A stretch of DNA of 64,000 nt from Schmidtea nova (Eukaryota): assembly GCA_044892505.1 (NCBI GenBank), contig CM097883.1:373550001-373614000 (forward strand). The letters are read 5' to 3'. Below, one piece after another: positions 9,491 to 63,288 of this stretch; within the stretch, counting starts at the first letter, position 1, and the number at the start of each line of letters is the position of its first letter. The translations under genes and the position numbers were made by a program. The notes under the pieces are model-generated. The model was given only the letters and a program-made list of their open reading frames with translations, searched no databases and was not told where the DNA came from.

Positions 9491-12400
9491 GTAAATTTTT
9501 AAAGATTTCTAGAATTATATTGATCCAATTTGCTCATTTGGTTTTATAAATGAATTATTTTAGATTTTCATCAATTATAAATATCAAATTAATTTATGCT
9601 AAATTTAAACAAAAAAAAACACTTTTAATTTTTTATCTAACTTCCGCAATTTGTAATCACCAATAGCCAATCGGATTGCTGCGTGTCTATAATCAGTTAT
9701 ATTTATTCAAGTCTACAAAAAATAAATCAATAACAATTAAAACAAGTCCACTATTATTTTTAATTGATGTCACGGTTTATTCCCGAATTCCACACTCCTT
9801 CATTTTTTGCCATAATATATCACGAGAACCCTCTATTGTCCCATTCAGTTACATCAGAACAGTTACCGTATTTGCCGGTGTATAAGACCCCCTTTTATTT
9901 TTGATAAGACTCGCTTGTTAATTCAATAAATATTAACTAAATAAATATATAGTGCATTAAATTGTTATATTTGTTTTTTGTTCTAAAAACTTGTTTTTTA
10001 GCATCCGTTGTATAAGACCCCCTTAGATTTTTCATCACTGAATACATGTAAAAAGGGGGGTCTTATACACCGGCAAATAAGGTATTTAGTTATATTCAGG
10101 TATTCACTCAATCGTTCTCAAAATCTTTGTAAAAAAATAAAAATTTATATCAATAATTCCCATAATGGTATTGTAAGCAACTCTTGCAGTTGATATTTTT
10201 GTGGTTGTTTTAATGTTATGTTAAAATACGTGGAAACACGTTATGTAGATACACAAATTGAATAAATCAATTATTTTAAATTATTATAAATTCTTTTAAT
10301 ACAATAAATTCCTATGGACAATATTATTAAAGGTATGACTATAGATCAAAATTTATTTTGGTTTATAGTCATACCATTATTAGAATTATTGATATAAATA
10401 AAAGGAGATCAAAGGTGAATCCAAAAAATAATTATGATAAAATGAAAATTAAGTATTAAATAAAAATGGCAATTTATTCATATAAATAAGAGAACACCAT
10501 TTTTTTAAAATATATTAATGCAATATATTTCAGCAGCTTAGCTGTCATCATCAGGCTTTCCACAATCTCAATAAAATAAAAATTGATCTTAATTATACGC
10601 TTAATAGTGATTACATAATTACATGTGCATAATCCAATAAAACTTTTATTCACCCTAATAAAATTAATTAAACATTCTCAAAATGCATGTAGATATTGCA
10701 TTTTGTATATTTATTTTTGGATTAAATGATTTTAATTGTGAGGCTTTGATGATAAAATCATTTAATCCAAAAATAAATATACGAAATGCAATATCTACAT
10801 GCATTTTGAGAGTGTAATTAATTTTATTAGGGTGAATAAAAGTTTTATTGGATTATGCACATGTAATTATGTAATCACTATTAAGCGTATAATTAAGATC
10901 AATTTTTATTTTATTGAGATTGTGGAAAGCCTGATGATGACAGCTAAGCTGTTGAAATATATTGCATTAATATATTAAAAAAATGGTGTTCTCTTATTTA
11001 AAATGAAAATTGATAGCTTTTTTCATTCCATTTTGCTTAGAATTGATTTCTAATCTATTTTCCGTTTGAACTGAAGCTATAAGTAGTGGTACACATAGTA
11101 TAAAACGAATAATGAAGTGCTAGGCAGCAGCTTTATCTTCAAATTTTGTTACCTATAAGAAACATTGGTAGTTTTAACGTGATTCGAAAACCATATTACA
11201 TCTTTCATTGTCAACTGTATAGCATCAAATTCAGTTGATTCCCGTACGACATATCCTCTGCTACTGTTGGGAATCCACAAATAATTAAATCCTTCTATAA
11301 TTCGAAAAGAGTATTAGCTTTTGCTACTTAATTGATATAGACCAAATCTAGTCTAATAATTGTATTATGTTCTAAATCAATGGTGCAAATTATTTATTTC
11401 AACAGATCTACTTTTGAATTGTAAAAGTAATTGAGATTTACCGAAACCAAATATCTTTATGTGATAATAATCAAAGCTTATCTTGTTACTACAAAAATAA
11501 AATATATTGAGTTACTATGCGATCGACTTTATGGGCATCACTGTTTTAAATGGTATACAAATAATACAGTTTCGCTTAAAACTTTTATGTATATTAAGAA
11601 ATGTAAAATTAAATTAAAGTGACATCTTTTGTTACCGATACATTTCCCTTCTTCTCCAAAAATTTTGACTCTTTAAAAAAATAGGCTTTTCATAAAAAGT
11701 TTTAAAAAATTAAAAATCGTGAAAATTTCCAACTCTTTGTGGCACTATCACATCATCATTGAGCCAAGTAATACAATGCAACTCCGGGAGGCGATTTGAT
11801 GACGTTTTTTATAATATTAGATAAGTCTCGGAGAAATGTATGAAAATATTAATAGTCACCATAGGCAGCCACCATAAGCAGTCACCATATGAAGTCACCG
11901 TAGGCAATCACCATAGGCAGTCACCATAGACAGTCACCATAGGCAGTTACCATATGAAGTCACCATAGGCAGTCACCATAGGCAATCATCATAGGCAGTA
12001 ACCTTAGCGAGCTGTAAGTACATATGCAGTAAGGATGTAGATATAGTCCATAGGATCATATGTTAACTTACTTTTGATAAGGATGTGCCCATAAATGCAT
12101 TTATCAATATTGCACCCAGAATTAGTGGTTTGTGGTGCTATCTTTACTAAAGAGCTGCATATCAAATAAATTAAAGTCTATTTTAGCCATTGAGACTGAA
12201 GTTGTTTTGCATTCTGTTGCATGTCATTTCATTGTGAAATGTTTAATTCTTGTAAAATAGCGTAACTGCCGCTATTTGGATGATATAGATTGTGTTTCGA
12301 GAATTAAATGGAGATTTTTCTTTTTCATCAGTCTTTATGTTTAGGTTTATCAGTTACTCTTCATATCTAGTTTTAATTCTCTACCAAGTTTACCCTTGTT

Positions 12401-15400
12401 ACTTACAGACCGTTCTCAGTTGAGCCCTGCGCCTCGATTCTCGAAGTGAACGAATCAATGCAGATAGATGTGCAGTTTGTACCAGAACTACCCAAAGATT
12501 TCTCAGATGAACTTATTATTCATTACGAGACGGGTATAAATAACTTTAGTTATTATTATTGTTATTATGTGACAATGAACTTCCAGGAGAAGATGTATAC
12601 ATCCGGATTCATGGATCTGGCCAGGAGATCCCAGTGAGAATAGAACGGTCGCTTGTGCACATTGAGGAGACTTATGTCGGTTTGGCTAATCTAAGGAAGA
12701 TAACCCTCCACAATCGTAGTGATGTGATGATCCATTTCTATTGGAGCAATTTCTCAAGTCAAGTGGCCGAAGATCTAGACCGAGAAACATTTTTGAAGAT
12801 TCTTCAAATAGAAGAGGATGAAGAACAAGAAAGATTTACCTCCGATGAAAATTTGGGATTATTGTCATCCGATAAATTTTCAATTGTTACGCGTAATTAT
12901 ATCAATAAAAAGAAAGTAAGGTATCGCAATTATATGGTCAACTATAATAAATCCATTTAAGATGTTTAAAGAAAAGAAATCAAGATTTGTTGACGATATT
13001 TTTACTATTGATCCGATAGAAGGCGACATTTGGCCTCACACGAGTCTGGACATAACCGTAGCTTTTAAGCCTACAGAAGCCAGAACATACCAATCGTTTG
13101 CATTCTGTGAAGTAACCGGGAGAGAAACCAGATTATCCCTAAAGATAACTGGCGTTGGCATAGGTCCAAAAGTGGAATTCTCATTTAAGACCCTTGATAT
13201 GGGATATATATTTATTCAAGCTCATCATTGCTATGAAATCGTCCTCGTCAACAAAGGCGACATTGATGCGTTATTTAAAATCGAAGGAACAGGATCTCCA
13301 GTTAGTAGATGCTTTATATTCACACCAGATGACGGCCTTATCAGTCCTGGTAGCCACCAAGTCGTTCAAATACAGTTTCAAAGCAAAGAGTTTCTTGGAG
13401 CCTTCCATCAACCTTTCAAGGTGAAAATGGACGGTTGCATGGAACCTTCCATCATAGATTTCAAGTATAAGGATAACAATAGCGATAATAATTAAATACA
13501 TGTAAAATTGCAGGGGAATCGTTATTGGTCCTACGTTTGCGTTCAATGTGCAAAAAATAAAGTTCGGAGAGGTATCTGTTGGATTTCCAAGTTCCAAAGA
13601 GATTACATTGCAAAACACATCACTAGTTCCTTTACATTTTCGGTTGAGAGTGCCAACCGATGGGACAAGTGATCCAATATTGGCTGAGGATTTAACAAAC
13701 AATGTGTCGCCAAGGGAGTATTGTTCTAGGCACCAACCGAGGGAGTTCTCCATAGAGCCTTCAGAAGGTGCATTGGCGTCCATGACGATTTGTAAGATCG
13801 CTGTCGTTATTACAGCAAACAGCATCGGCAAATACCATACCGGATTAGTGCTTGATGTGATCGGAGTAGGAAACGAGTTGTATTCTATTCCAATTACCGC
13901 CAAGTAATTTCCAATCGTAACCTTTATTTAATATTTATTATTCCACCTGTATCTAGTGCAATCGTTCCTAAAGTGGAGTTGTCATGCGACGAATTGGACT
14001 TCAGTCGGTCTTTCCTTCAATATTCCTATGAGAAGGTCATCAAAATGTTCAATTCTTCTAATTTGCCAATCAAATACGAGATCCTCCGACAGACAGAGAA
14101 AACCGAGAACGTGTCATTTTCCAGTTCCTTGAATACGGTTAATTTGTGTATTTAAGTTTATTGAGTCCGCAAAATGGTAGTGCAAATGTTCAGGTATGGA
14201 ATAATACTTCATTTAAATCAAGGGTTCCCGGTTTTGGTTGCAGGGAGGCTTCCAGAGGCTAGTATACAATACTCTTTATAACATTTTGAATGGGTTGCAT
14301 TTATACTATTTATTTACTTCATTGACTGACTATTTTCTTTTTACTCTCTCTATATTAACTTCGCTGATGTTTGTATGTTTGTATGTGCCACGCAAATTTT
14401 GCAAGGTCAAATTAACCCACTTTCCATAATCGGATTGAGCTGAAATTTGGCAAGTATATCCGTTTTCAAGAACACTGTATGCTATTCAAATTTCAGATCG
14501 ATCCGATCACGGAAAGTGGTTATTTCAAAAAAATCAACTATAAAAAAAGTGATTTTACGTAATAATAAATATTTCATAGCATTGAGAACGCATATTAAAA
14601 TTTTAGTTTTGAGTGAAATTAAGAGAATGAAATATAGAGTTTCAAAAACCACGTTTTTTCATTGTTGATTTTTATTTAAAAATAATATTCAAATTCTCTC
14701 GGAACATTTTTATATCAAATTTAATCCAAAAGAATTTTTATATCATCAATAGAATAAACTAAAAAGCGGTTTGAATTTTGATAAAATAATATTGGATACT
14801 AGTAATATTATTTAGATTATATCACTTTTATCTCTTAATTTCACCTTTGATCTTTTCGTTTCTATTTCTGAAATTTTGACTTTTTTATAGACGATGAACA
14901 AATTTTTGGCAAAGTTTTATTTTCAAGTATTAACTCGTAAAAAGGCTGTGCCAGAAATTCGTGTACCTTCTTAAAAAAATTTGTTTGATCTAGTCTTTAT
15001 GAAAAATGAAAATGAAAATTATATTAATTCATATATTTTCATTTTTAAGATAATAGATCAAAATTTTTTCCTATAGAACACAAAATTTCGGCGATGTTTT
15101 CTTCAAAGTGAAATAAACATTTGAAAAGGAAAAAAGCGTTGTTGAAAATTCCTGTTGAATAGAAATGTTTTTGATTTATTGTCTTAACAATGAAAATGTA
15201 AGAAACTGTAAAAAACAACAAAAGAATGACAATTAAAGATGTTAATGATTTTTGTTATTATTTTATCAGTAAAATATAAATTATTAAAATTGTAAAAAAC
15301 AAAAATTATTTTATATATTATTTAATATTTAATTTATAATTAATATATTTAATATATTATTTAAAATTCATAAATTATTTTAAAATTATTTTAAACTTAG

Positions 15401-18400
15401 TTTATTATTTAAAATTTATTTAATATATTATTTTTATTATTAAAATAATAAAAAGTAGTAATTTAAATCAATAAATTTCATATTAATAATTGTATGACTA
15501 TAGATCAACATTTTCTTTGGTTGTTAGGTTGGTGTTAATATGAAAATTATTGATTTAAATAAACAGAGATCAAAAGTGAAACCTGAAGATAATTATAAAA
15601 AGTAGTGTCGAACTCATGGAAACCGATGGCGTAGAAGTCCTTACAAATGCGAACTAGGATGTTTAACTATGAATTTAATAGTGTCTCCAACATGTTCTAA
15701 TTTCCTGTTTCTAAACTCCTCTGTCCTTCACTCACATAATTCGATCCCAGAACTTATGTTCACAGTTGGTAGCCAAAGGAAAACACATTGTCACAGACAC
15801 TCAATTTCGATTTAAGGAGATCATAAAACCTGATAAGATATAATATGAGAGAGGACTATCATAGATATAGTATTTAATTTAGAAGTTGATACTTGATGAA
15901 CTGACTTGTTGGTTTGTGAAGGTGAGGATAGTACCACATCTATAACAGGTAGTTAAAATCATAGATATAAGGGGAAAACTATTCACAGGTGATATGGATA
16001 TAATTGAAGTTACTGCTAGGATGACTCTTATTAACATTTCTAATGGGCTTAATATGGCTGATGTTCTTAAATACTTTATGTATGACTTCATGGTTGAAAA
16101 CCGCTGTTCTATACTGCCATGTTCAAAATGCAATGTTTAGGTGTTATTCTGAAAAGGAATCTACGCGTTTAGATGTACCTAAATTTGTAATTACGTATTG
16201 CACGTTATTCTAAAGAGGATAATGCAATCCCAATATTATACTGAACCCTACCACACGTCAATGCGGACTCAAAACGTTGTGAACTATGTATATGAAATGG
16301 ACATAAATAACTGGTTTCCTTCATATAATAGGCAATCGTTTATCCGAATTCAGAGCTGGAGATTCCTATTGAACTGAAAGTATACACTATTGGGGAGTTG
16401 ACGACAAAAGTACATTTCAAAATTTTTGGATCCTCGAAAGAGCCATTAGTTAGACTTTTTGATAATTTGAATATAACTTATAACATCTTATAGGCTCTTA
16501 CTATTAAATGCATTGGAGAAGGTCCTGTTGTGAATCTTGATTCCGTTTCATTAGATTGGGGCATAATCAAAGTCCTCGAAGATAAGTCATTTAACCTTCA
16601 ATTGACAAACGAATCTGAAATTCCTGCCATTTTTCATACAACTTTGGTATTTATAACTGGGATCTTAATGAGGTGTAATTTCACGCAATAATTTCAGCTC
16701 AAAGACCAGTCTGTCTTCCGAGTGGAGCCCGAATCTGGCATAATGGAGCGTCATGCAACACTCATTTTGAAAGTCATAGCTAATTTAAATGACTGTGTGA
16801 AATTTACAGACGAAATCCACCTTCACATAGAAAATAGTAAGACGAAAATTGTGCCGTTAATTGCCGTTGGATCTGGAACGACAATTGAATTTGACCCCCC
16901 AATTCATTCTGTCATGAATCTTGGATCTCACTTTAGCAAAAGTCAACTCAATGAAACATTTCGAGTGACAAACAAAGGGAAAAGACATCAGCAATTAGTT
17001 TGGTCTAATGAAGGATATTCCTACACTAAGGCTATGCGTCAGACAGGAACTAAAGTAAAAAATTTTTAAGTCTGTTGCAACTTCAAATTTAACGAACATT
17101 CCAATTCGAATAGAACGCAATAAAAGCTCCCACGTTGACAGTTCATCCTCACCGATTTGATTTGAGTCCAGGAGAATCGGCAAATCTAGTAATCCAAGGT
17201 TATGTTGACAAGTAAGAATCCTTTCCATAACCTATTCTTTCTTTATTCATTAATCTATAAATGAAGACCGCAAGTTGTCCAGGAGCGTATCATGTGTCAT
17301 TCCATAATTGGCAGACAAGGGGGCAAGGAGCTTATTAAAAAGGTAGACTTGGAGGTGAATTTTATTTCTCCGGTTTTGGAGTTTTCCAATAGGTCTCTAC
17401 ATTTCCGACTGGACAAAGTATGTGTTAGGTTGCTGATTTCCTCCTCAAATCATAAAATTTAGAGCTTGGATACTGCATTCGAAATTCTGACACAAACCCT
17501 CAGCTTTACCAATGTTTCTGGACTCGATCTTAATGCAAAGATAACCGTTGCGTATCCTTTTAATATCTTAGAAGTGAATGAATTCTCTGTCTGTGAGAAG
17601 GTTAATTTGATCATTTTTATCCAGTTGTCATAATATCGAGATACCTTTAGCAACTGTTTCTTCATGTCAATAAGATGGAGACAATTACCGTCCAATTCAA
17701 TCCGCTGTACAAGTCAGACTCTCATAGCAGGATTGTTGAAGACTTTTTGAAGATTTCATTCGATGAGCATCCCCATGTAGTAAGTTTTCGTAGTTTTCTC
17801 AGTTAAATATTTTAGATATTTTTCAATGTAGTGAGTATTATGATTTCGTGTAACTATATTCTTTCAGACTATTAACCAATGAATTGTTTTCTATTCAGCG
17901 CATTGGTTTATGGTCTGAATAAATTGAAAATAAACGAAACTTTTAATGATTAATAAGTGAAAAAATAAGCCTTTGCTGCGAATTTTTTATTCGGTAAAAA
18001 TTTAATTTAATCAAGATTTAATTTGCTGGGGTTACTACTAAAACCATAAAAGTAAAATTCAAACACAATAAATAAAGTTAAAATCAAAAAAAATATCAAA
18101 ATAATTAAAAGTGCCAAAAAATTAATTAAAAATTATCAAAAATTAAAAATTAATATTCATCGAGGAGGTATTGGGTATGGTTGAAAACCAAATCATATGA
18201 CGGATCCAATAAAAATGATAAAAATTGAGTGAGAGATCCCCAGAGAAGACTATATTAAAAAAAATTAATTAAAATTAATTAATCGCTCAATGGGAAGCCC
18301 GAACCAATGGAAAGTTTGAGACAATGGTAAACCCGAGCGACGAGGAAAACTCGGAGCGCAGGAAGATCCGAGAGATCAAAGGTGGGTAATTGCGCAAAAC

Positions 18401-21400
18401 AATTAAAAACAAAACCCACCCGGGCGCTAATGAGGGATAGACAATTTAATTTGTTATTGTTCCAATTAGGCTTAAATATTTCCAGATATTCTAGATAATT
18501 ATCTTCCCGATAATGCTATAAAAGGAGAGCGGGAAAATACGAGCGGCCAGTTAGCCAAAAAGATTCAAGGTAAAATATTGAGTTGAGGAACTTTAAGTGA
18601 GATAAAAAGTGATTACAATAAAATTTTATTCAATTAAACGTACCAGAAAATGCTATTCATTAAATTGGAATTAAAGACAACTTTTAATTTAGTGTGACAT
18701 TCAAATAACAATACAGTAATACCTTGTACAACGCTCTATATGCGTTCCTGGAAATTGAGCGTGATAAAAAACAGCGCTATAGGACGCAAGAAACTGAAAT
18801 TTAGGGGTTACGTTACTTCTGTGTTAAATAAATACCATTTTATTTTTATTTTTTATTATTTTCAATTCATTTTTAATCAATAAATTGAAGTTATATGCAT
18901 TTAATTCAGTTCAATATATACTTCAAAATAAAAATATTCGATACTTTTTCAATAAATAAGTTTTCATTATGTATGTATCAAAAACATATAAAATAATAAC
19001 ATGATGAAATTTAAAACAGAAAAACTAAATTAAATTCTACATATTCCGTAAGAAAAACTGGTCTAATTTAGACTGTTGCCGATTCGATTGTTTCTCTTTT
19101 AAAATTTCAGTGTACGGAGTAAGACTTTTTGAAACACCTCTCTTAATAAAACCAGAGCGTTCAGAATCAGGGTCATTGTCAGTTAGAACATTTAAAGCTT
19201 TGGCAATTATTTCTAAATTTTCTTGTAAAACATTTTTTGTCAATTTCTTTGGCGGCTCTACATTTTCATCATCTTTACTTTCGTGGTTTTGGTATGATTC
19301 GTCTCCCATTTCGATTAAATCTTCATTGGAAACGCCTGCCTCATGTAAATTGATTATCTCTTCTACGTCTTCGTTCATTAGGTCGTCGAACCCCACATCA
19401 TGTGCAATCTGCACTGTTTCCACGATAATGGAGTGTAAATTATCGGGCACAGAATTTTCATTTTCTTTAAGAAGAATTTTATTCCAAACTCCTCGCATGG
19501 AATCATTTGTAACTTCATTCCAGGAGTCTCTAATATTTTCAATCGCCATCATGATATTGAAACATTTTCAAAATTTCAAAATTGTTTCTTTTTGTACATC
19601 AACTGCATGTAAAAGTTGCTTGAATGTACGCCGAAGGTAATAATAGACTTTAAAATAATAGCTTTAAAATTCGCTATAACTTCCTGGTCCATCGGTTGAA
19701 TCAAAGAAGTCGTATTCGGAGGTAAAAAAATAACTTCCACAGGTATGGTTTTTGAAAGCGCAGCTATATTTTTTAAATGCCCAGGTGCACTGTCAATTAT
19801 AAGAAGAGGTCTGGATTCCAGTTTCTTATTCTCGCAATAATCTTTTACTGCGGGCAAAAATATTTCACAAACCATAGCTCAAAAATAGCAGCCGTAACCC
19901 AAGCCTTACGATTGGACATCCAAATGACAGGTAAATTATCCTTGGAGTAACCCTTCATTGCCCGAAGATTTTCCGACTGATGCAGCAACAGATCCTTTAA
20001 TTTTCTCAGCCTTTTGCATAATTGTTCTAACAGTTGATCCGGGTAAATTCAATTCACTGCATACATCTACTTGACGTTTCCCATTATTGATAAGAAATTA
20101 TTTATTTATTTACAACAATAAATAGGAACATTTCAACAAGAAACACTGATTAACTGTTTAATTTTTGTTTCTAAAAAAATTCAAATGAATTATGTGAATC
20201 CCCAAAATATAAACAAAAATGTATGGAAATTTGAAATAAAATACACAGAAATCAATTTTAATGTATATATGTATATGTATTCTTTTTAATGATTTTTTCT
20301 TTTTAATGATTTTTTCATATCAATTTTTTTTGTTTTGAGCTTTATAACGAAACAGCGTTGTAAGAGGGAGCGTTATACGAGGTATTACTGTATTCTGTAT
20401 TAAGTAATTTTGATTTTGATATAAATAAAAGGATACGAGGAGTCAGAATTTGAACCAATCTATTGTTTAAATAAAATAACCCAACAAATTTATTTACTAC
20501 CATTGGCGTAACTATGGGAAGCGAGGGATACGAGCCGCCCTTGGCGAAACTTGCTTGGGCTGCAAATTCGTGATGGGATCGTCTAGTGAGGTTCTTANNN
20601 NNNNNNNNNNNNNNNNNNNNNNNNNNNNNNNNNNNNNNNNNNNNNNNNNNNNNNNNNNNNNNNNNNNNNNNNNNNNNNNNNNNNNNNNNNNNNNNNNNNN
20701 NNNNNNNNNNNNNNNNNNNNNNNNNNNNNNNNNNNNNNNNNNNNNNNNNNNNNNNNNNNNNNNNNNNATACACACTTGATAAAGGCTGTGCCGCAATATC
20801 GTGTATTTAACAACTAAAAATATTTTTATCTATAGTCATACAATTATGAAAATTATTGATTTAAATAAAAATAGAGCCAAAAGATAATTAGAATATTCTA
20901 ATTTAGGCTTTTTGTAATTGATTTCAACAATTTGACATATGTAAAATAAATTTTAATAAATCCCAAATCATTATTTTTATCTTCCAATAGATTTGTTTAT
21001 CTTTTCTCCACTGGCTTCATTATTATTTGAAAATTCCGCATTTCATTTGTAAAATTTCACTTAAAATTTAAAATTCTGAATCTTCGCATTGACGATTAAA
21101 AATTATGATAAAATCCTTAATTTATTTCAATGAATTATGTTATCATAATGAGGCAAATAGTCTTATTTACATCCTTACATTCGTGGTAGGCTAAAAGGTT
21201 CCTGGACTCGCGTAGAAATAATAAAGTTAGTAGGCCTAATAAAGGTCATAGTTTCACAGCATGCGTTAGATGGGTTTGACACCATTGATCAAAGTGTTGT
21301 AGTTTGAGTTAATGTTGCTGTTGGAAAAATCGACCCTCAAGACTCTTAAAACCCAAAAATACACTCAACATCACGCATTATAGATGTGAAGGGCCTGATC

Positions 21401-24224: not shown

Positions 24225-24257
<33 letters not shown>

Positions 24258-42200: not shown

Positions 42201-43205
42201 NNNNNNNNTAATCAGAAATGAAAATGTGCTAATCGGAGGTAGCCAAAGTCGCCAACAATTTGGTAATTTTACATTGTTCCCAGCAACCGGGTTGGTCCCA
42301 ACGAAAAATTCAATAATTGTGACAGTTGATTGTATCTCAGATAACCCAGGAAAATGTGATGAAGTAATTATGGGCTATTTTTTAAAATAAACAATTATTC
42401 ATAAAAATTGCTTATAGAATCTTATTATTGAAATTACTGATCGGAATCCCAAGATTGACCCCAATGGTGTTCTCTATCGATTGTTCGTTGAGGCTTTTGT
42501 TCCCAGCATCGATGCAGCTAGTCTTAGTTCTATATTTGAAGAGCACCGGATATGCGATACAATTACCGTTATCAATAAAGAATTGCATCAGGTAATTCAA
42601 GATCCATAGGGAGCTTTATAGTTTTGATTTTGACCTCCAGTTATGCTCCGGAGGCATTTATGGGAAATTGGAAAATCGGTTCCTATTTACAAATGTTCTA
42701 GTTGGAAGTAAAGTAGAATCCAAATTCAGACTTGACAATCCAAATAATGTCCCATGTGACATAAGCTTGTCACTGAAACCACTACATGGGGGTCGGAGTT
42801 CAATTGGTGGACGAGGATCGGCTTCTGTGGGTGACATATTTGAAGTTGAACCGACAAAAGCTCAAATAGAACCGAGAGGATTCATTTATGTTTCTGTTAT
42901 CTTTAGTCCCCTCGCTATGCAGGTTTTTATTTTATATTAAAAAAATCCTCTTAAATGGCTTCAGCAATATATCGCCGTCTTTGATTGCTGCATTGAAGGC
43001 ATGCCTTCAAATAGCCCATACAGAAGCAAAGCTTTATCATTTGAGGTTTGTGGTGAAGGATATTTGCCTAGGATTGTTGTAACCAAACCCACGCTACGTA
43101 ATAAAAAGAGTCAATATCTATGTTTATTCAAAAAGTCACTCTTGGGAAGATGTCAATCTCAGAATGTAGATCTTTTCAATGACGGCTGCTTACCTTGTCG
43201 AGTAA

Positions 43206-43244
<39 letters not shown>

Positions 43245-45504: not shown

Positions 45505-45579
<75 letters not shown>

Positions 45580-48500: not shown

Positions 48501-51500
48501 CCGACATCTTCGACAAAAATACTATCGGGATGGCATGGAACATACAGAATCGTCAACAAAATAAGTGATGCTAACTACATAATAGACACCAGTCGAACTA
48601 GAAAATGACTGCGGACCTTTCATGTAAACCTTTTACGGAAGTGGCATCGCCGAGAAGAAGCAAGCATACAAGCGTTGATCGCCGACGAAGGCAGGACCGA
48701 AACCGAGACTGTTAAAATAAACCCGGAAGCGAGCACCGAGACCATACAAATCGTTAAACAACTTGTTGAAAAATACAGCACCGTGTTTTCTTCTCTACCA
48801 GGCCTGATAACCGAAGCAGAATTCAACATAAATCTCACGGATGAAACGCCAATCAATCAAAAACTATACCAGCTTCCGCATTCACTTAGAGATAGTATAA
48901 ACGAAGAAATTCAAAGCCTACTCAAGCTAGGAATCATCGAAAAGTCAAATAGCCCATATTATCAGATACCGATAAAAGATAAAGACAGACCAAAATATGC
49001 GTTTACAACACCATTCGGATGATTCCAATTCACAACGATGAGTTTCGGATTCAAAAATGCTTCAGCTTGCTACCAAAGAATGATGGATAAACTATTCCAA
49101 AACGTATCAGGAACGTCAGTGTTCCTCGACGATATCATTATCTATTCCTCAACAGTCGAGAAACATCCGAATACTACAGACAGTTTTAGAGACCCTACAA
49201 AGAGCTAATCTAACCCTAAATGCAAAGAAATGCAAATTAATGATGTCGAAAACCGAGTTCCTAGGGAAACTAGTCGGAAACGGAGAGGTGTCACTGATAT
49301 CGGAAAAAATCGATGCAATCAAAGGAGCACCCAGGCCAAAGACAAAGAAGGGATTACGACGATTCCTCGGTATGATCAACTACTACCGAAGCCATATCAA
49401 AAACCTATCAAGGAAAATGCATTATCTGAACGAGAAACTAAAGAATTGAGCCTCAAACCGAATAAGATGGGACAAACAAAGCGAAAAAGCCTTTAACGAT
49501 ATGAAAGGATCACTGACAGAAGCGCCAGTACTCATAGCGGCAGACCACGACAAGACATTTTATGTACAAACCGACGCGTCCGACCGAACCATAGGAGCTG
49601 TCTTATCCCAAATTATAAAGACAAAGGAACATCCGATCGCGTTTTGATCCAAGAAACTTTCGGAAACTCAGATCCGATGATGAACAATCGAGAAAGAGCT
49701 GTTCGCAGTACTGGAGCGTACTGGAGCGATTCCGTTATTACCTATACAATCACAAATTCGTAATCCAAACGAATTATAAGCCGCTAAAATGGCTCGTGGG
49801 TCTAAAAATTAGGAACAGTAAAATCTCAAGATGGAGCCTCCTACTCCAAGACTACGAATTCGAAATCTAGTACAAGAAGGGTACCGAGAACACAAAATAC
49901 GATTACCTCAGTCGATTTAAAGAAACCCAAGCCGAGTAGAGGGACGGATGTGACAGTTTAGAATTAATTACTAAATAATTCTAAATCGATTTCATCATTT
50001 TTAAACATTTTTGTTTAAATAAGCTGTTTTTGAGAAAAGAATACATTTTAAAAAGTGTCTTAGTTATTGTCGTAACAATGAACAATTTCAATTTAAAAAA
50101 TATTTTTTAAACCAATTTAGNNNNNNNNNNNNNNNNNNNNNNNNNNNNNNNNNNNNNNNNNNNNNNNNNNNNNNNNNNNNNNNNNNNNNNNNNNNNNNNN
50201 NNNNNNNNNNNNNNNNNNNNNNNNNNNNNNNNNNNNNNNNNNNNNNNNNNNNNNNNNNNNNNNNNNNNNNNNNNNNNNNNNNNNNNNNNNNNNNNNNNNN
50301 NNNNNNATTCCATTATCATTCAAATTTAATCAAAGACACTGATAAAATACTATTCCTGTAGTGTTTAATTTTATTTAATTGAATAAATTGATATTATAAT
50401 TTATTAATAATAAGAAGAAGAATAAGAATAAGAATAATAAAAAAATAATAATAATAAAAAAATTAATTAACAATTATATTAATAACAATAATAATAATAA
50501 ANNNNNNNNNNNNNNNNNNNNNNNNNNNNNNNNNNNNNNNNNNNNNNNNNNNNNNNNNNNNNNNNNNNNNNNNNNNNNNNNNNNNNNNNNNNNNNNNNNN
50601 NNNNNNNNNNNNNNNNNNNNNNNNNNNNNNNNNNNNNNNNNNNNNNNNNNNGTTTATTGACTAAATTGGTTTAAAAAGATTTTTTTTTAATTGACATTGT
50701 TCATTTTTTGATGAGGTCAAGATAACCGGAAAGTACTGGTTTTGCTTTTTAATATCTTATCAGCTTTTTATATTGGACTAGCGAAATCTCGGAATGCGTT
50801 GCAATGCCTTCAAGAAATTTGTATACATGAGATACAGAAACCTAACACCACCGGCACGGAAACAACAACTTCCCAAAGTTTCGACGCAATCTGACAAACA
50901 GTGAATATTGAAAGAAATTTCAATAAATAAAATTTCTTTAATAACGATTTTATAGAAAAACATTAACTTACAGAAAATTCAAATTAAAGGAAAAGTTTAT
51001 TATTACAAAATTAAAGAAATAAAACACAAATAATGATACTGATGATGGATGATGATGATTATATCGATAATGGTTGATGAAAAAAATTATAACTGATGAT
51101 GTATATAAAATTTCATCTCGATTTATACTATTTATGATAATCAAAACTATATTGATTTATAAAAAAAAATAATTTTAATGTAAAATTATAATGAAGTCAT
51201 CTACCGATGTACTAAAAAAGCAATAGGGTTCCTCGTCTAAGGGGTATCTACCATATAGCAAAATTTCAGCACAATAGTACGAGTATAAATTGAGTTATGT
51301 TAGAAAATGTATTAGACATTTCTAAAAATTCCAACTTTTCCTCACTTCTGCTCACTAAAAGAACTGAAGCCATCGCCCGATCAACCTCACAAACAATAGG
51401 GTTTTTCATTAAAGATGTATCTACCAAATAACGAAATTTTCAAGACGATAGCTCTAACCGCTCCCGGGTCTAGAGCAGACATATATACATTGTCTAAAAA

Positions 51501-54500
51501 TTTTTCCTACTATATATATATATATATATATATAGATTTGTGCAATATTTCTATATTTTGTACACCTTTCACATGTGTTCTTTCATGCTCTTTCCTTTAA
51601 TTCCTTTAAACGGTTTTGAAATACTCTTAAATATTTTTCTTCATATTTTAGACCATACATCAATATTTGTTGTGTTTTGTTTTGATAATAATTAATAGGG
51701 CGACTAGAATAATTTCACATTACAAGGACTTTCTTTTGTTGACTTTTAATATTTTCAGTGCGGATTTCAATTCACTTCCCAATCAGTCGGAGTGACGGAA
51801 TCATTCTGGAGATTTGAAATACCGGAAATGGGAATAAACGTACCTTTTCTCGTTGTCGGACAGTGCACGGAACCGAATGTTACTTTCGATAAATCCCATT
51901 TTAAATTCCCGGCTCTTCTCATTGGTCATGAATCGGTTGAAACTGTTGAAATCATCAATTTTGACAACCAATCCTACAATTTTGCATTCCAAGAAATTAG
52001 TCGTCATGCACCAGGTCACAGCAACAGTTTAAAAATTGAACCGATGCATGGAATTATTCCGAGTTGTGGGAAAGTCTCAGTCTACATTGGATTTACTGCA
52101 ACCTTTAACCAGACTCTTAATTTTAACTTAACGTGTCAAGTTGATAAAAAAACGTATCCTTTATCTATTAATGTCAAAGCAGAAGGCTATTCAGTGGATA
52201 GCACAGTTTGGTTTGAGGATGCCAACGGTCACAGTGTCGAGTTGATCCCATGCCCAAAGAACAGTGATCAGGAAGTGTATAATAACATCAATATAGGTCG
52301 AATGGAAGTCGGTGAGCAACAAACGAGATGGATAACATTAGTGAATGACGGGAAATTCAATTACGATTTCAACTGGGATATAAAATGGAAAGACGATCCA
52401 AAACTAAGCAGCATGCTGCTTTTGACGCCAATTTCAGGCACTGTAATTATAGGAGAAAAGCAAAGATGTGACCTTCACATAATTGCAAACAGACCAACAA
52501 TCTTACAAAAGGTTGTCGCTCTCCTAACAATTGGATATGGCAATAGCTACCTTTTGAACATCACTGCAGATATCCATCGGCCGATTTTGGAATTCTCATT
52601 TTCTCGACACGATTTTGGGCACTGCTTCGTTTATCGAGCAGGCATGAAACAGCTGACGGCGGAACTAGTCATAACGAATCGAGACTCGAAGGATTCGAAT
52701 CAAAAACCCATTAGTGTTGAATGTCTAACTGAATCAAATGACGTTTTCATGCATAATTTCGAGGCTGCTGTCATCATTCCTGGCTCATCAACGACTATTA
52801 AGATCACTTTCCTGCCACGAAAACCGAAAAAATATCAACAGCTTCTTTTGTTTGAAGTTAATGGTATCTCAAGACATTCGGTTGAGTTGACTGGATACTG
52901 TGAGGAATTGAAACTCGAGGCGGTTGATATACCAAATCATACTGTCAATCTCGGAATGTTAAAAGTAGGAGAAAAAGTAAACAAAATAGTCACTATTATC
53001 AATACGACGCACGTCCCCGTGACATCAAAATTAGTATTTTCGCCGACATGTGAAGAACTTCAACAACGAGGAGTTTTCAAAATTACTCCTTTAGGTATGA
53101 TACTGATATATAATTTACAATGTTCTATCAGGGACTTTCATTCATTTTTGTAACATTGACATTTAATAGTGTTAATTTCTAATTTAATAGTATTTTTTAA
53201 TTTTATTACTAATTATCTTTTAATGATCTATAATATAGTCTGAAAAAATGACAAATAATTAATTAATTTATAATCAAGTTTTAATCAATATTTATATTGA
53301 ATATTCAATAATCGGTAAAATATAAAATTTGTATAATCCAAATTCATTTTATATTATAAAAATAAAATACTATTAAATGTCAACATTAATACAATTATTA
53401 TTTTATAAAAATTTGTTTATCAGCTGAAATGATTAATAAAATATTTTCCAGATAGAGTATTTTTAACACCTCTCAACAAAGCTCTACCTCAAATTGTCTT
53501 TCCATTTTGTCGTTCCACTACCACAAACTTTTGCTTTTCGAAAAATATAGTTTATAAACTCATCTGTCTAAAATGTGATACAGAGCTTTCCGCATTCGAC
53601 TTAATAAATACATTAAAAGTAGAACCAGTAATTATCACGAATATTGAGAGTAGGTGCATAAGATGGTCCCATTTAGTAAAGAAACAAAATATCAAGTTTT
53701 ACAAGGCAGATCTAAAAATTCCTTATAAATATTAGCTTCCGAAACTTCCTTCGTTAAAGTTACAATCTCTTCATAATTCATAACAAATTAACAAATTAAA
53801 ATATATATTTTTAAAACAGTGCCCACTTGATAGTATTTAAACAAGGTTAATTATTGAACATCACTCTCCTCCTCTTCATTTTCTTTGAATCTCTTCAGCC
53901 ATTCAATTCTTCTTGATTTGATTGAGTTTGGAAATTGTAATTCAACTTGTCTTGGTGATAAGAATTTTAAAATTTTGTAAGGTCCTTCATATTGGATTCC
54001 CTCTTTCTTTCGTCTATGTGGTTCCAAGCGAACTAACACTTTCTCTCCCACCGTGAAAACTCGAGTACCTCGGTGTTCTAAATCTCTATTTTGCATTGTT
54101 GTAGCTGCTTTCTCTAGATTAGTTTTTGTTTTATCCACGATTTCTTCTTTGTTTTTTTGTATATGTCCTAATCTAGAATATAAATTAATCTTCCGACCAT
54201 ATACAATTTCAAAAGGTGAGAAATTTGTTGAGTTTTGTATTGTAGCATTCAAACTAAATTCAATCTTCGGTAACAATCTGCACCAATTATTTTCTGTTCT
54301 AATCTCTGTCAATGATGTTGCCAACATGTCCCGAACTGTTCTTATGATGCGTTCTGCTAAACCATTTGATTGATGTTGATATGGTGAACTGAATTCTTGT
54401 TTTATACCAAATTTCTCCATCCAATCACGAAACATTGATCCTTCAAAAATTCTTCCTCTATCTGTAAGAATGCTTTCTGGTCTACCAAAACGATATATCC

Positions 54501-57500
54501 AATTATTTAAAATGACATTCAAAATTGTTGATTCATCCTGCGTGCTTGTTGCTGATAAGCTGTCTCCATATATGCAATATCCACTACTATCTGTTCTAAA
54601 AACCGTTCTCCTGTTCTTGGCAATATAATTTCATTTGTTCTTCCTTGATCAATCTTTCTAGTAGCACAAATGTTGCATTTATTAATACATTCCGTAATAC
54701 TTTGATTCATCGATGGCCAAAAGAAAAAGTCTTTTTAATAAAATAAGGTTTTCTTGATACCCAAATGACACAGTTCAATATGAAAATAATTTACCAATGT
54801 TTTTACGTACTTGTCAGGTACTACAATTGCAAGTTTTCCATCTGCATTAGTCATCAATACGTCATCTTGTATCTGTAATATTTTTAGATACTTGAATATA
54901 CTGCTACTGATTGTTTCATAAGATATATGAGCCTCATTTCCATTAAGATGTGATATGATTTCTGAAATAATTTTGTCTTCGTTTTGCTTCTGTTTAATAA
55001 TTTTCATAATATTTGAACTTCCTTGTAGACTATTAATGTACCGAGTTCTACATTTTGACTCTTCAGCATCCTTGTGTTTCATCTGACAATGAGCGCATAT
55101 GGCATTATTTAAACGAGACATACCATCTGCATTTCCATGTTCTTCTCCCTTCCTATATTTTAACTCAAAATCGTATTCAGATAAATATGCCATCCATTTC
55201 TGAAACTGCGGACTTATTGGTTTCTTTGTCGTGTTCATAAACGTCAATGCCTTGTGATCCGCTCTAGCTACACATTTTCTTCCATATAAATATTGCTTGA
55301 AATGTACAATCAACTCGCGAAGTGCCAACAACTCTTTTCTAGTAACACAATATCCCATTTCATGTGTTGTCAAATGTCTTGAACCATACGCTATTACTCC
55401 CTCAGTACCATCTTCCTTAATTTGAGATAAAACGTCACCTATAGCTCCAAAACTAGCATCCGTATCAAGAATAAATAGTCGATCTGCCCTTGGAAATTCT
55501 AATATTGGTGCTTCACACAAGAGTTTCTTTAAATTGATAAAACTTTTTCTACATTCTTCAGTCCAAACAATAATTTTATCTTTTCCTGTTGTTGCGGCAT
55601 ACAAAGGTGCTGCTATCATTGAATAATCTTTGATAAACCGCCGATAATAATTAGTTAAACTTAAGAATGACCTCAATTCTGTAACACTCTTCGGTTCAGT
55701 TGCATTTTCAATTTATGAAATCTTTCTTTTGTTTGTTTGAATTCCCTTTTCACTCACTGTATGACCAATGAAATTTAATACGCTTTTATGGAACGCGCAT
55801 TTTTCGGGATTAACTTTCAAACCGGCATCTCTAATGCGTGTGAATACTTCAAATAGAAGTTTATTATGAGTTTCCTGATTTTCAGTATATATTAAAATGT
55901 CATCAAGATAGACAACCACTCCTTTGAAAATTAATCCTTCCAATATCTTATGCATCAGTTTCTGAAAAGTGGCAGGAGCTGTTGATAAACCAAATGGTAA
56001 CCTGTTAAAACAGAATTGTCCCTCTTTTGTACTAAATGCCGTCTTGGTTTGGGAATTTCCATGCAACTCTACCTGATAATAGGCTTGACCTAAATCAATT
56101 GATGAAAATATCTTTGACTTATCGAGACAATCCAATAATAACTGCATGTCTGGCATCGGGAACGAAAACCTTTCTGTAACTGAATTTAATAGCCTAAAAT
56201 CTAGACACATTCTTATAGAGCTATCCGTTTTTCCAACTATTACTAGTGGTGTGTTCCACGGACTCTGACATTTTCTCACAACTCCAACTTCTAATAAATT
56301 CTGTATTAACTCTTCAATTTTGACTTCTAAATGCATGGGTTGTCTTCTTGGATTTTGTAAAATTGGAGGACCCGAAGTCGTTATTCCACGTGTTATTACT
56401 TTTGTATGACCTAAGTCAAATCTGGATGCCATAAAAATGTTGCTAAACTTAGATATTAAAGTACCCAACTTCGAATTTTTGTCCAACTTGAGTGTCAATA
56501 ACGCAAACTCTAAACGATCAGAATCTGTAAATCTCTGGGTAATTAACGATGCATCTATATTATTGACTTCTTTAAGCTCCATGCCAAATATTCTCATGGT
56601 GTCTACACCTCCTATAAAATCTGGATGAATTTTTCTGACAATAATAACATTCAATTCTCGACATTTGTTGTTCCATTTTGCAACGATTTTAACGCTTCCA
56701 AGAGGTTTCTCGTCTTCTTTTGAAAAAACTCCACTCAACCGTATTCTGCTTTCCATCAAATTTGGACTGCCAATTAATCTCCAACATTTCTCACTCATTA
56801 CACTGACTGAAGCTCCTGAATCCCATAGCATCTCTACATAAAATTCATTTATTTCAATAGTACTCCACTTTCTGTCATCATCCTTCTTAAACATCACATC
56901 CTTCTTTACAACATTTCGTTTTTTATACTCATCTACTGTCTCGACCCTACTGACGAAATGTAGACAACAGGGTCTTCTTGGTTTTCTTTTTGAGTCTCAA
57001 CATTATGTATGACTGGGGCTATCAATTCCTCTGATCTGTCATCGTCTTCGTGTATACAGTACACTCTTGGTTCCAGTCTTTGTGTATTGCTTCTTGATTT
57101 CACTAACAAATTGCAATTTCTAAATGAATGACCTTCTTTACCGCATATTAAGCATTTGTCCTTCAAAGGACACTCAAATCGCATATGGTCACTTTGTCCA
57201 CAACAAAAGCATTGACCAGATCTTAACCTTTCTTCTGCTGGCTCAGGTAGACCACAACATCTATTATAAACTTTTCTTGCGATATGTTTCATTGAAACTA
57301 ACGGTGGTGGTCTACGATCCATAGTTGTCCTCTCATTATATTGTTCTACCACGGGTTTCACTCTATCAATTTTTCTTTCGCTTCTTTCATTTCTATTTTG
57401 ATAACTTATTTCTGGTTGACGACTCGAATACATTCTATTATTTAAAGATGTTTTTTTAGTCCATTTCTTCTGTTTATCTTGAGCAACGTTTGCATAGGTT

Positions 57501-60350
57501 GATTTCACTACTGCCTGAACTTCTTCAAATCGTTCTTTTGCATCGTAGCCTTCTCGTGCCTCATATACTTTTGCTAAATTTCTAATTTCTTCCCTCGTGA
57601 TATTAGCCTTCGTTGAAATATTTTCTATCAAACGGTCGCTCCGAACTCTGCTGCACAAAATCATTTCAACAATATTTTCTTTTGAAATTCAACAGTCAAA
57701 AACTTTGTCAACAAGTTTCTTTACTCGTATCTCGAATGTAATAAATCTTTCATCGTTATTTTGTTTCACTGCTGATAAGTCACAAATCTTATCCATAATG
57801 GACTTCTTTTTGGTAAATGTTTCATTAAACCATTCACTAGCTTTTTCATTCGTTGTGGCGATGTCCTTAAATTCTTTCCAGAGAATAGATGCCTCTTCAG
57901 ACAATAATAAATCAAAAATACTTACTAAATTTAGATCATTTAGTAGCATCCAATCTTCAATATCCTTGAGCCATTTCTCTACTTCTACCGTGCTTCGGCC
58001 GTCGAATCTTCTGACATTAAAATTCAAAATGTCTTTTGCCTGTTTAGACAAAGATTCCATTATCATCTTTCTATGCTGATTTCTTGTCACCGCGTGAATC
58101 GGCTCGATATTTTCGGCGTGGTCGCCAGTTACAATCTCTTCATAATTCATAACAAATTAACAAATTAAATATATATTTTGTAAACAGTGCCCACTTGATA
58201 ATATTTAAACAAGGTTAATTATTGAACATCACTGCTAAAAAACACAATACGACCATCAACATTCATTTCGCATAAAATCATGTTAAATTATAAATAAAAT
58301 TTTCATCCAGTAAAATTAATTTAAAATAAATAAATCATAAATTTAATATTTAAAATTAAGTAAAATATAAGGCATACTTGAAAAAATCCGTGTAAAATAT
58401 TCGTGTGCTAAATACACTAATTTTGATCAATAAACTTTATAGAAAAAAATGTAAATTTCTTAAATAGAAAAAAAGAAACCAAGGGTGAAAAAGATAAACG
58501 AGATCAATGATATTACATCATTATGTAATTGAAAGTAATGATAAAATTAATTAAAGAGGTTCTCATTTGATAGACTGATCATCGCACTAGATAGTGTTAA
58601 TATTTCATTTATTAGTGTTTTCTGGTAAATATGATAATTTATTTATAATTAATTTTTAGGNNNNNNNNNNNNNNNNNNNNNNNNNNNNNNNNNNNNNNNN
58701 NNNNNNNNNNNNNNNNNNNNNNNNNNNNNNNNNNNNNNNNNNNNNNNNNNNNNNNNNNNNNNNNNNNNNNNNNNNNNNNNNNNNNNNNNNNNNNNNNNNN
58801 NNNNNNNNNNNNNNNNNNNNNATAGATAAAAAATTTTTTTTTTATAAACAATAACACAATATTTCGGCACAGCCTTTATCAAGTGTGTAAATACACACTT
58901 GATAAAGGCTGTGCCGAAATATTGTGTTATTGTTTATAAAAAAAAAATTTTTATCTATAGTCATTATGAGAATTATTGATAATAATAATAAAAAAAGATC
59001 AAAGGTGAAAAAAGATAATTATGATAATATATATATATATATATATTCCTTGTTCTGTGTCGTTTGGTCACTTACAATTTTATTTTCTATTAAATTTCAT
59101 CTAAAATATAATTATAAATAAATTATCACAATTGCTAAATACACCAATAAATGAAATACTAACATTATTAAATGCAAAGGTCATACTATCAAATGAGTAA
59201 CTTTATATTAACAATTTATTTAAAATTGACAGTAACCAATTATATATAATTCATACACTCGTTGTGCTATTATTTATTCTCCATTTGCTAAATAATTATT
59301 GTTTCATTATTCACCATACCCACACAACCCCTTCCAAAAACTATTTCGTCCTATATTGTCCTTCCTGGGAAATGATCAGTCTATATTATAGGAATATTGC
59401 TGTATTTTCCTGTTGTAAAACCCTCCAAACTGACTCAGATCTTTTGTTTTCATTTCTGAACTCAGGCTTGGAATAAAAATAAATTCAATTTACATCGCGA
59501 ACTGCGCATCATATATCAAAGTATAAAAGATAATAATTTATAATGATTATACTACTATGAAACGCAAAACAATAATTCGTCGTCTCCCTGACTGCTGTAT
59601 GACGTGAACATTTACATTCAGGTCAGGAATTGGTAATTAATCCAGGCAAGGCCAATGGTGTTCCCATTCAAATAGCATTTTCTCCAAACAGAAGAATCTC
59701 AAAGTTTAATGAGGAAGTATATTGTGAGGCAGTTGGGGTAACATTCCCTATTTTCATGATGACTGGAGGATGCCAGGCTCACGACATTCGCTTTGATGTT
59801 GAATCAATTTCGTTTGGACTGGTTACCAAAGGCAGTCACATTACAAAGAAGTTATCAATGACAAACTACGGCGATATTGGAGCCAGGTAAGATTTTCAGA
59901 AACTTTTAGACATTTATTGAATTCTTATAGATTTAAATGGAATAGTGACTCATTCAAACCTGATTTCTCCATAACCCCTGTCTCTGGATACATTTCTCAA
60001 GGGATGGAAGTGGTTTTTGAAATTTGCTTTTCTCCAGTTAGACCAGCTCCGGATGTTCGATATGACGTAATAATTATATTACTTATTATTATTATTATTT
60101 GTAAAAGATATCGCTGAACTCTAAAACTGATTTACTTATTACAATTACTAATAGTTATAATTCAACATTATTAAAGAATGTTGAAATATAATTACAGAAT
60201 AATACTACATTCCATCTAGGTCAGTGTTTCCCAACCTGGGCGATTTGAAATGTTAGGTGCGCGATGATTGTTGTTTTGCATATGTCAACTTTTTTTACCA
60301 CTGTTTTTATTTTTTCCGTATCGTTCTAAATTCTAGAATCTAGATACAAT

Positions 60351-60428
<78 letters not shown>

Positions 60429-62269
60429 CGCAGACAAACACAAACAAGTCTTATAAATGACCTACGTCTATATATACCTCTGCCCTTAATTTGTCAATCT
60501 TTATAGTATAACAATATATGATGCACACACATCACCTTACATGTAGTTGCATCTACTCTACCCTAGTGCTTCGCAACCTGGGCGATATCGCACACTAGTG
60601 GGCGATTTGAATTTTTAGCAATTGGAAATGGGCGATAATCGTAAAAGGGTTGGGAAACGCTGATATAGGCGATAAACAAAATTAGTATTTCTAGTTTAGC
60701 GTACTGGATAACGGTGCATTAGTTTCCTTGTTCAAATACTTAGTTCTCAAGAGTGGGTAGTCTGTGTATCGTTCGGAATTCTTTTAACTTTGTTGTAATT
60801 CATCTGAATCATTTTTATTCTTTTATCTCTCAATGGATAAGTCCGCCGATTTGCTACCGATTCAGTCTGGAAGGACCATAATATTTAGAGACATTAATTT
60901 GCCCATTCTCTCTCTTGATCATAACTATGTCTCCAATCTCAACTTTCTATGAATTATTCCTTTATCATAATGCTGTTTCTGAACAGCATTCTTGCTTTTA
61001 CTGTTTCCTAATACAAATTTCTGAATTCCTTCTGTTCATTTTCCTGTTGTGTTCTGAATTGTGAATCGGATTCCCAATTTCAATAATAGACAAAATGTCA
61101 TCCCAATCGTGTTTCCTTCAGAACGCTAGAAATTACAGCTTTTGTTGATCAGCATATTACATTGTTGATAAAGCTGATGTAAAAATTATGTTTAGTATGA
61201 ATTATAAACATCAATGGAAATTATTTAGCAATTTATATGTTTGTTATCGAAATAAACGTAAGCTACCATGTTGCACTAGAACAGACAAAGCCCCGTACAG
61301 CGCGTATCTTCCCAAACTCTTGACATACCCTCAGGATTACACATACCACATCCACAAATAATCTGCANNNNNNNNNNNNNNNNNNNNNNNNNNNNNNNNN
61401 NNNNNNNNNNNNNNNNNNNNNNNNNNNNNNNNNNNNNNNNNNNNNNNNNNNNNNNNNNNNNNNNNNNNNNNNNNNNNNNNNNNNNNNNNNNNNNNNNNNN
61501 NNNNNNNNNNNNNNNNNNNNNNNNNNNNNNNNNNNNNNNNNNNNNNNNNNNNNNNNNNNNNNNNNNNNNNNNNNNNNNNNNNNNNNNNNNNNNNNNNNNN
61601 NNNNNNNNNNNNNNNNNNNNNNNNNNNNNNNNNNNNNNNNNNNNNNNNNNNNNNNNNNNNNNNNNNNNNNNNNNNNNNNNCAGTCGTATCGATGTTTGTG
61701 AATATGTGAGTGTGAGAGTTTTGAGTCCGTGTGTTTGCCTCATTTTTTGCGGTTTAAGTAAATTAACTGATGTGGTTGTTGATGGTGTTTATTTTCTTCT
61801 TTTGATTTGTGTTCTATACTCGTTTAATTTTTCAAATGTCATGGGCGTAATGCCACATACTTTGGACAAGACTGATCGTCTTTTCTGTACTCGAGTTTTA
61901 GAGCATTTTCAATTGGGGATTATGGATTTCGTTTTCAATCATTCTGTTGTTTATAAATATGGAAATATTTATAATATATTCTTAAAAAAATATTTTTTAA
62001 AATAAAAATAAAAGATTATTATATTTTTAAGATTAATTTATTTAAATTAAAAAATTTTAATCGATTTAAATTTTTTGCTATAATATATAATTTAAAATAT
62101 ATATTTTATTTTAAAAATTAATACTAATTTGTTTGAAAAAATCGATTTATTTGATTTAGATTTGAATGTAAGATTGGGTAGCACCTGATGAAGAGAATTA
62201 AGTTCTCGAAATATATTGTGCAAAATATATATTTGGATTGGCGTTTGTTTTTAATTTTTATTATTATTA

Positions 62270-62319
<50 letters not shown>

Positions 62320-62937: not shown

Positions 62938-63090
62938 GTAACTTGAAAGATTTTGGATTAATATCTATTATTTCTCAAATAAATTTATTTTCTTCATTAA
63001 ATTATACATAAAATAAATTTATAAGATTCGATTTATTTTACTTTTTAGGATTATATTATGAGGATTATATTTATTTTCATTCTTTTAGAC

Positions 63091-63218: not shown

Positions 63219-63288
<70 letters not shown>

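Follow-up and report, generated by a model that had tools for sequence, protein, structure and literature searches.

Hammerhead motifs in the introns of a Schmidtea nova HYDIN gene are most likely inert ends of Penelope elements

Minimal hammerhead ribozymes (HHRs) in the pseudo-long terminal repeats (pLTRs) of endonuclease-positive Penelope-like elements were described by Cervera and de la Pena (2014; PMC4209133), whose account reports thousands of mostly solo copies and, in Schistosoma, both a U3-A8 core and minimal HHRs lying on opposite strands 100-700 bp apart. According to the same account, single minimal HHRs show no cleavage and dimers show low cleavage. Inverted pLTRs, a one-sided tail, target-site duplications (TSDs), microsatellite targets and trans-mobilisation by pLTRs feature in the descriptions of Penelope elements by Arkhipova (2013; PMC3846280) and Craig (2021; PMC8557442). 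Non-long-terminal-repeat (non-LTR) retrozymes are defined in PMC7229834, and a preprint (bioRxiv 10.64898/2026.07.22.740005) derives animal retrozymes from Penelope pLTRs. Inverted pLTRs and opposite-strand minimal HHRs are therefore already published and not new; our literature search, with supplements and most subscription papers outside it, returned no paper on hammerheads in planarian Penelope elements. Here we analyze the HHR motifs found in a 64,000-nucleotide stretch of Schmidtea nova DNA (assembly GCA_044892505.1, contig CM097883.1, positions 373,550,001 to 373,614,000; hereafter the window), which contains the greater part of a HYDIN gene on the + strand.

We conclude that these motifs are very probably minimal hammerheads of Penelope pLTRs, brought in by 5'-truncated and often inverted insertions, and that they are probably carried along neutrally and would cut the host transcript only rarely. 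Their sources are two autonomous families (A and C), a 963-bp derivative (family B) that lacks a reverse transcriptase (RT), and an older family, E. HYDIN is a long gene, and the Penelope debris in it is ordinary.

The host gene spans at least 58 kb, with coding exons from at least position 9141 through the window end at 64000 (9141..64000, +), and homologue matches extend its 3' exons to ~67,378. Six open reading frames (ORFs) of the window (9141, 12550, 16692, 24543, 27636 and 31502) are collinear with the solved HYDIN chain 9ijj_4G, matching, in order, residues 173-283, 326-438, 893-997, 1202-1542, 2029-2092 and 2217-2391, and Pfam finds HYDIN/ASH Ig-like domains. Every HHR motif of the window is intronic, lying between + strand HYDIN exons. 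Four sequencing runs covering 24400-34600 gave no GT-AG joint among 15 of 85 joints, and their contigs cross introns, so that the runs look like DNA.

An initial annotation had listed 12 hammerhead sites in these introns, and all 12 fall in nhmmer matches of family profiles that we built from genome copies. Each motif opens with stem I and CUGANGA (or, in the U3-A8 core variant, UUGAUAA); a single bulged base, stem II and GAAA follow, and then a palindromic AUAUAU or AUAU stub, UH and the closing strand of stem I. We scored a copy as an intact minimal type I HHR if it had CUGANGA or UUGANAA, GAAA and UH, together with a G10.1-C11.1 pair in stem II, a palindromic stem III and a stem I. The family motifs satisfy this description, and five of the 12 listed sites pass it (10931+, 34839+, 58882-, 58899+ and 62185+); in 10931+ the basal pair of stem II is G-U, which is the more frequent family A variant among the first 100 copies listed. 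The other seven are decayed: 10554- has a broken stem II base, 20772+ has GCAA in place of GAAA, 28913- retains only its 3' half, 29171+ has the core CTGAATA, 34639- has lost stem II, 39790+ has a mismatched stem II and 47924- has lost 3 nt. Beyond that list we found four extra motifs, comprising two decayed family C copies (14939+ and 15093-) and two of family E (35638+ and 62600-), so that six of 16 window copies pass (one via the G-U) and ten fail. In each of 100 dinucleotide shuffles the descriptor found no match, compared to six in the window. An Rfam scan of the window gave 19 weak matches with no hammerhead family among them; these minimal variants escape Rfam, and its miRNA-like matches are the foldback hairpins. 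Eight of the 12 sites belong to four tail-out inverted pairs, which bears out the earlier observation that most motifs lie in inverted pairs. N-masked stretches adjoin 20772+ and the copy carrying 62185+ (at 61681) upstream, hiding any partner arm.

These motifs resemble the pLTR HHRs of PMC4209133, as far as that account describes them, in their type I topology, palindromic rudimentary stem III and bulged base before stem II, in the occurrence of both C3-G8 and U3-A8 cores, and in being mostly solo or on opposite strands with few in full elements ~3 kb apart. Exact copies genome-wide (genome size 1.25 Gb) number 35,171 for C, 6,292 for B, 1,858 for A and 133 for E, with 0 for reversed-pattern controls. 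Unlike the ~2,000-9,000 in genomes named in that account, more than 43,000 exact copies of three motifs are thus present here, and they are very uniform, again in contrast to that description. The high copy number and uniformity suggest recent bursts.

The initial annotation had tied the motifs to Penelope, in three families of intronic foldbacks, and had proposed looking for an autonomous Penelope ORF that shares their tails. Such ORFs are present for families A (903 aa) and C (869 aa). Family A forms 2,697-bp tandem units whose HHR is identical to the motif of the window copies; its ORF matches RVT_1 (E=3e-11, above the cut-off) and GIY-YIG (E=0.003, below the cut-off), and its endonuclease region is 43% identical to that of family C. 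In a head-to-tail array at L031-L032 (G000:C1:4728070-4741591), six family A HHRs recur at 2,697-bp spacing and the 903-aa ORF is fully open in two units. Family C forms 2,767-bp units, one partial copy of which has both RVT_1 and GIY-YIG above the cut-off; the 12 homologues of its protein have uninformative names. In both families an HHR stands at the start and at the end of the ORF (2,697-bp and 2,767-bp spacing, respectively), as pLTRs of partial tandems. The window copies of A and C align to the 3' ends of these units, including the GIY-YIG end of the ORF at 69-95% identity, and the variable length of the ORF ends that they carry is the pattern of 5' truncation. The A and C copies of the window are therefore 5'-truncated ends of autonomous Penelope elements. 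Both families belong to the endonuclease-bearing (EN+) Penelope group: like canonical members as described, they have RT then GIY-YIG in one ORF, partial tandems, a pLTR overlapping the ORF start, an inverted 5'-truncated copy, a one-sided tail and a short TSD. No substantial difference from those descriptions was seen. Family E has endonuclease-like remnants upstream on the same strand in three of 30 loci. More Penelope/HHR families with other stem II sequences occur at L032:8273-9930 and in the dynein spans g7, g12 and g13; one of them is linked to an RT 56% identical to that of family A.

These elements bear on the proposal, made in the initial annotation, that all three families are non-autonomous, retrozyme-like RNAs moved in trans by a Penelope RT. 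As that annotation had noted, no intact Penelope RT is linked to the motifs: the RT ORFs found in the window are of Ty3/Gypsy type only, yet Penelope endonuclease remnants adjoin some of the motifs. The proposal fits family B, for which HHR-to-HHR dimers and arrays of the 963-bp unit without RT, and no autonomous parent, were found. Full-length autonomous copies with identical HHRs rule it out for A and C, whose window copies show 5' truncation, and as a statement about all three families we consider it improbable. A and C likewise differ from retrozymes in having a coding parent.

Family B occurs singly, as dimers and, among the matches listed, in arrays of up to 5 units. The 26 distinct HHR-to-HHR units measure 867-975 nt (25 are alignable), arrays have a spacing of 963 bp, and an internal 29-mer has 2,092 copies genome-wide. 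The unit contains two frameshifted, duplicated GIY-YIG remnants and no RT; only family B appears to be non-autonomous. A search for an autonomous parent, by a B-type HHR with an intact YIGET 300-330 nt upstream, gave two matches, neither of them autonomous: one is a B rearrangement and the other an A-B chimera. The chimera (L090:1441-2709) has a B tail at one end and an A tail at the other, with the A-to-B switch inside shared endonuclease homology, and is a possible template switch. Chimeras joined at the other endonuclease remnant, sought with a second pattern, gave 0 matches; as L090 is the single case linking B to a family A helper, ectopic recombination could also explain it.

The majority sequence of family B has a 278-codon open frame, compared to a maximum of 149 in 2,000 shuffles. 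This frame (e.g. L033:2330-3293) has its ATG in the HHR core and spans both diverged endonuclease remnants, in a unit whose 963 nt is a multiple of 3. Stops in the frame number 0 among 46 shared variants versus 8 among 128 singletons, and the internal repeat pair (72% identical) has 0 stops in the open frame versus 5 and 7 in the other frames. Selection at the protein level was not seen: omega was 1.16 among copies and 0.82 between internal repeats, and compared to older copies the frame shows 2 synonymous and 13 non-synonymous differences. We tentatively propose, as a possibility that we hold to be rather doubtful, that family B is a link between Penelope and retrozymes, namely an A-like RT-less derivative copied by the A enzyme, with the frame kept for translation and not for its protein. 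Of the families, B alone shares with animal non-LTR retrozymes as described a tandem organisation with a single type I HHR per unit, the lack of an RT and a Penelope derivation. The length of its unit, 963 bp, falls at the upper end of the 51-972 bp reported for them. Unlike them, it keeps duplicated GIY-YIG remnants and the 278-codon frame, and inserts with inverted arms in the manner of Penelope-like elements. At the level of DNA sequence, the retrozyme-like label of the initial annotation holds for family B.

We mapped the individual insertions along the HYDIN introns. A family A foldback on both strands (10451..10998) consists of two inverted 3' ends, whose identity to the autonomous L032 unit is 92-95%. 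Each arm corresponds to the final 300 nt of A, comprising ~55 endonuclease codons, the pLTR and the HHR, and the tail extends further on the left. The HHR cores are 10554- (damaged) and 10931+ (the G-U variant). The foldback inserted into the end of an older family C tail remnant (10345..10440, +; 79% identity), and is flanked by a candidate 13-bp TSD (10438..10450 on the left and 10999-11011 on the right, +) that partly resembles the element tail. This candidate is the only one among six window insertions examined; the other five gave no convincing TSD. Long terminal inverted arms and a candidate duplication are also what would be expected if the foldbacks were DNA transposons resembling miniature inverted-repeat transposable elements, or chance hairpins, with the likeness to hammerheads incidental. 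We give this explanation practically no weight, and the match to autonomous Penelope elements rules it out: elements that code for an RT supply the arms with their 3' ends, the inner breakpoints of the arms are variable, the catalytic core is kept in four families with differing stem II, and the descriptor has no match in any of the 100 shuffles. The intron of the family A foldback also contains a 13-bp minisatellite of ~12 copies (11854-12007).

The remaining insertions are likewise remnants of Penelope families. Two decayed family C motif remnants (14939..15093; 14939+ and 15093-) were recovered by profile match, followed by a family C pLTR stub (20768..20900, +) that bears the GCAA change and has an N-masked left neighbour. 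An old family B-like foldback on both strands (28820..29246) carries the decayed HHRs 28913- and 29171+, and a family C foldback (34555..34975, both strands) combines 34639-, its stem II deleted, with 34839+, whose core is intact above a 2-bp stem I. Nearby lies a family E minimal HHR (35634..35740, +) of an older Penelope-like family, with a U3-A8 core at 35638. An old family B-like copy (39545..39978, +) has its HHR core at 39790, and a 5'-truncated family A element (47819..48426, -) with 80% nucleotide identity retains a GIY-YIG remnant (aa 767-902) beside the HHR at 47924. A 5'-truncated family C endonuclease remnant (53506..53812, +) resumes at 58237-58497 beyond an inserted Ty3/Gypsy-type LTR element. 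A young family C mini-palindrome (58822..59032, both strands), 94-98% identical to the autonomous unit in L082, carries perfect HHRs at 58882- and 58899+ and ends at a TA microsatellite. The 3' 615 nt of the 963-bp family B unit (61681..62295, +; 93% identity) contain the intact HHR at 62185, end at an ATT microsatellite and are N-masked on the 5' side. Toward the end of the window are a family E copy with a weak stem I (62502..62601, -; core at 62600) and a family C tail remnant that has lost its motif (63676..63758, +; alignment to family C).

The Ty3/Gypsy-type element that interrupts the older family C fragment (53758-58233, -) has 108-bp terminal repeats that are 96% identical, and its protease, RT, RNase H and integrase ORFs are interrupted by stops. 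A second, more decayed Gypsy-type RT fragment lies in a HYDIN intron at 48609-49870 (+). Fragments of pogo/Tigger-like (DDE_1, CENP-B_N) and ISXO2-like DNA transposons were found at 19037-19878, 801-1103 and 38233-38505 (-) and at 29905-30476 (+), and another foldback repeat family, in which no hammerhead was detected, occurs at 29383-29663, 38962-39232 and 58547-59263 with very high run depth. A divergent, intronless tubulin-like sequence at 4509-5965 (-) is made up of two neighbouring ORFs (Pfam Tubulin and Tubulin_C) and is possibly a retro-pseudogene. Downstream of HYDIN, L050:1344-6923 (-) holds a 1,860-aa ORF with retrotransposon gag, zinc knuckle and MATH/TRAF domains. A search of a phage collection with the 10.5-kb foldback gave no match.

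The initial annotation had described the gene as seeded with these motifs, and had named a bias of orientation or integrity in introns as the test of a role for them. For comparison, we carried out a census in the genes of 21 dynein heavy chains, taking their limits and strand from Pfam matches to DHC_N2 and Dynein_C; the 1.197 Mb covered is partial for several of them. A strand check with six dynein ORFs gave sense matches in 21 of 21 spans and antisense matches in 0. The spans contain 212 A/B/C motifs, 0 of which overlap dynein exon matches, at a density of 17.7 per 100 kb compared to 21.9 in the window; the 14 window matches do not differ significantly from the 11.3 expected (P=0.25), so that special seeding of HYDIN finds no support. 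Nor are exact motifs rarer in dynein genes than genome-wide (C, 51 versus 34 expected; A/B, 15 versus 8).

Neither a strand bias nor an integrity bias, as would mark selected intronic ribozymes, was found in the 21 dynein genes, and in this sample the outcome is the one that the initial annotation had named as counting against its reading. Sense and antisense motifs numbered 111 and 101 (P=0.54), and intact ones 38 and 41 (38/111 versus 41/101; Fisher P=0.39). Where no partner lay within 4 kb, 6 intact copies were sense and 5 antisense, and a family-agnostic descriptor gave 44 sense and 47 antisense. Among 120 clusters, 52 had motifs on both strands, 40 were sense-only and 28 antisense-only (P=0.18), with intact single-strand clusters split 10 to 10. 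Span g20 has weak exon support, and leaving it out did not change the picture (102:94; intact, 35:38). A tail-out partner lay within 500 bp of 111 of the 212 motifs and a convergent partner of 30. Dynein introns also contain, in sense orientation, a full family B dimer whose two HHRs are both intact and a family C element that is nearly complete. Since similar long genes carry the motifs about as densely and on both strands equally, those of HYDIN are likely inert passengers. Dynein C-terminal exons are duplicated in inverted orientation ~0.5 Mb apart with identical scores (G000:C3:49964853-49972715, -, and 50484224-50492086, +).

These counts also bear on whether the expression of HYDIN is tuned or burdened by sense intronic hammerheads that cut its pre-mRNA, singly or with one copy supplying the stem III of another. 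Five sense motifs pass the descriptor (10931, 34839, 35638, 58899 and 62185), and the Cpeb3 ribozyme (PMC10919898) is a precedent for a regulatory intronic ribozyme. The HYDIN stubs resemble this hepatitis delta virus-like ribozyme, and amniote intronic HHRs, in lying in large introns with some in sense orientation. The Cpeb3 and amniote ribozymes, however, are single-copy, conserved and active as monomers; the HYDIN stubs are ends of multi-copy transposons that show neither a strand bias nor any sign of selection. Equilibrium folding in context of four of the five intact or near-intact sense copies gave P(stem II)=0.000 for 10931, 34839 and 58899, which are predicted to be locked by the mirror arm inside their foldbacks, in agreement with the masking suggested in the initial annotation. 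That annotation had also suggested that two sense copies might complete each other's stem III. The sequences would allow such pairing. Only one pair of intact sense copies belongs to a single family, however; its members lie 24 kb and many introns apart and both are predicted to be locked, and all cross pairs computed (35638 was outside the dimer calculation) were 4-11 kcal/mol uphill, before foldbacks or distance are counted. Completion between distant copies is unlikely. Combined with the lack of bias in dynein introns and with the reported in vitro inactivity of single minimal HHRs and weak activity of dimers, these results leave cutting of the HYDIN transcript a very slim prospect.

Several observations weigh against regarding the motifs as inert Penelope ends. 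Two descriptor-passing sense motifs are not predicted to be masked: 62185+ is intact, with P(stem II)=0.99 and P(stem I)=0.001, although it has no intact same-family sense partner in the window, and 35638+ forms stem II in its minimum-energy fold. On sequence alone, the family B core at 62185 could pair with the family C substrate at 58899 (8-bp stem I, 4-bp stem III). The equilibrium-only model also puts B and C homodimers uphill (+6 to +7 kcal/mol) and does not separate homodimers from heterodimers, so that distance, intervening splicing and masking carry the argument against cross-completion. The census is confined to dynein genes and thereby to 0.1% of the genome; its motifs occur in clusters, and its spans may include nested genes. 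Intact same-strand pairs within 4 kb were 7 sense and 14 antisense (8 of the 14 from one array), and the sense fraction among intact motifs has a 95% interval of 37-60%, which is compatible with a mild bias in so small and clustered a sample. Finally, Xenopus retrozymes are reported to be ~43% intronic and depleted there after normalising (bioRxiv 10.64898/2026.07.22.740005).

We propose the following account of how inert Penelope ends would come to lie in these introns. The element RT would copy its RNA from the 3' end, often stop early and add an inverted second copy. The HHR would act in tandem element RNA, with the dimer likely its sole working form. Whichever strand of a tail-out pair the host transcribes, the antisense arm would be made before the sense HHR and would sequester it, so that masking would follow from insertion geometry as a by-product of integration. 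For solo copies there would be neither a stable stem III nor any partner close by, and in any case the host would tolerate slow cleavage within introns; slow intronic ribozymes are reported to leave splicing unaffected (Fong 2009, cited in PMC10919898). Sense copies that escape masking, and dimers as well, are retained with no bias, and the chief reason for their tolerance is therefore likely to be low intrinsic activity.

For HYDIN itself these findings have no import, as any long gene of this genome carries such stubs. The dynein census offers direct evidence, on a small scale, that pre-mRNAs tolerate sense-oriented minimal hammerheads of Penelope elements, even as complete dimers, and this tolerance fits their reported weak activity. 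With young autonomous families beside a family B whose endonuclease remnants are still visible, this genome would be a convenient system in which to study the recent proposal that animal retrozymes are parasites of Penelope elements, as well as the role of the pLTR hammerhead.

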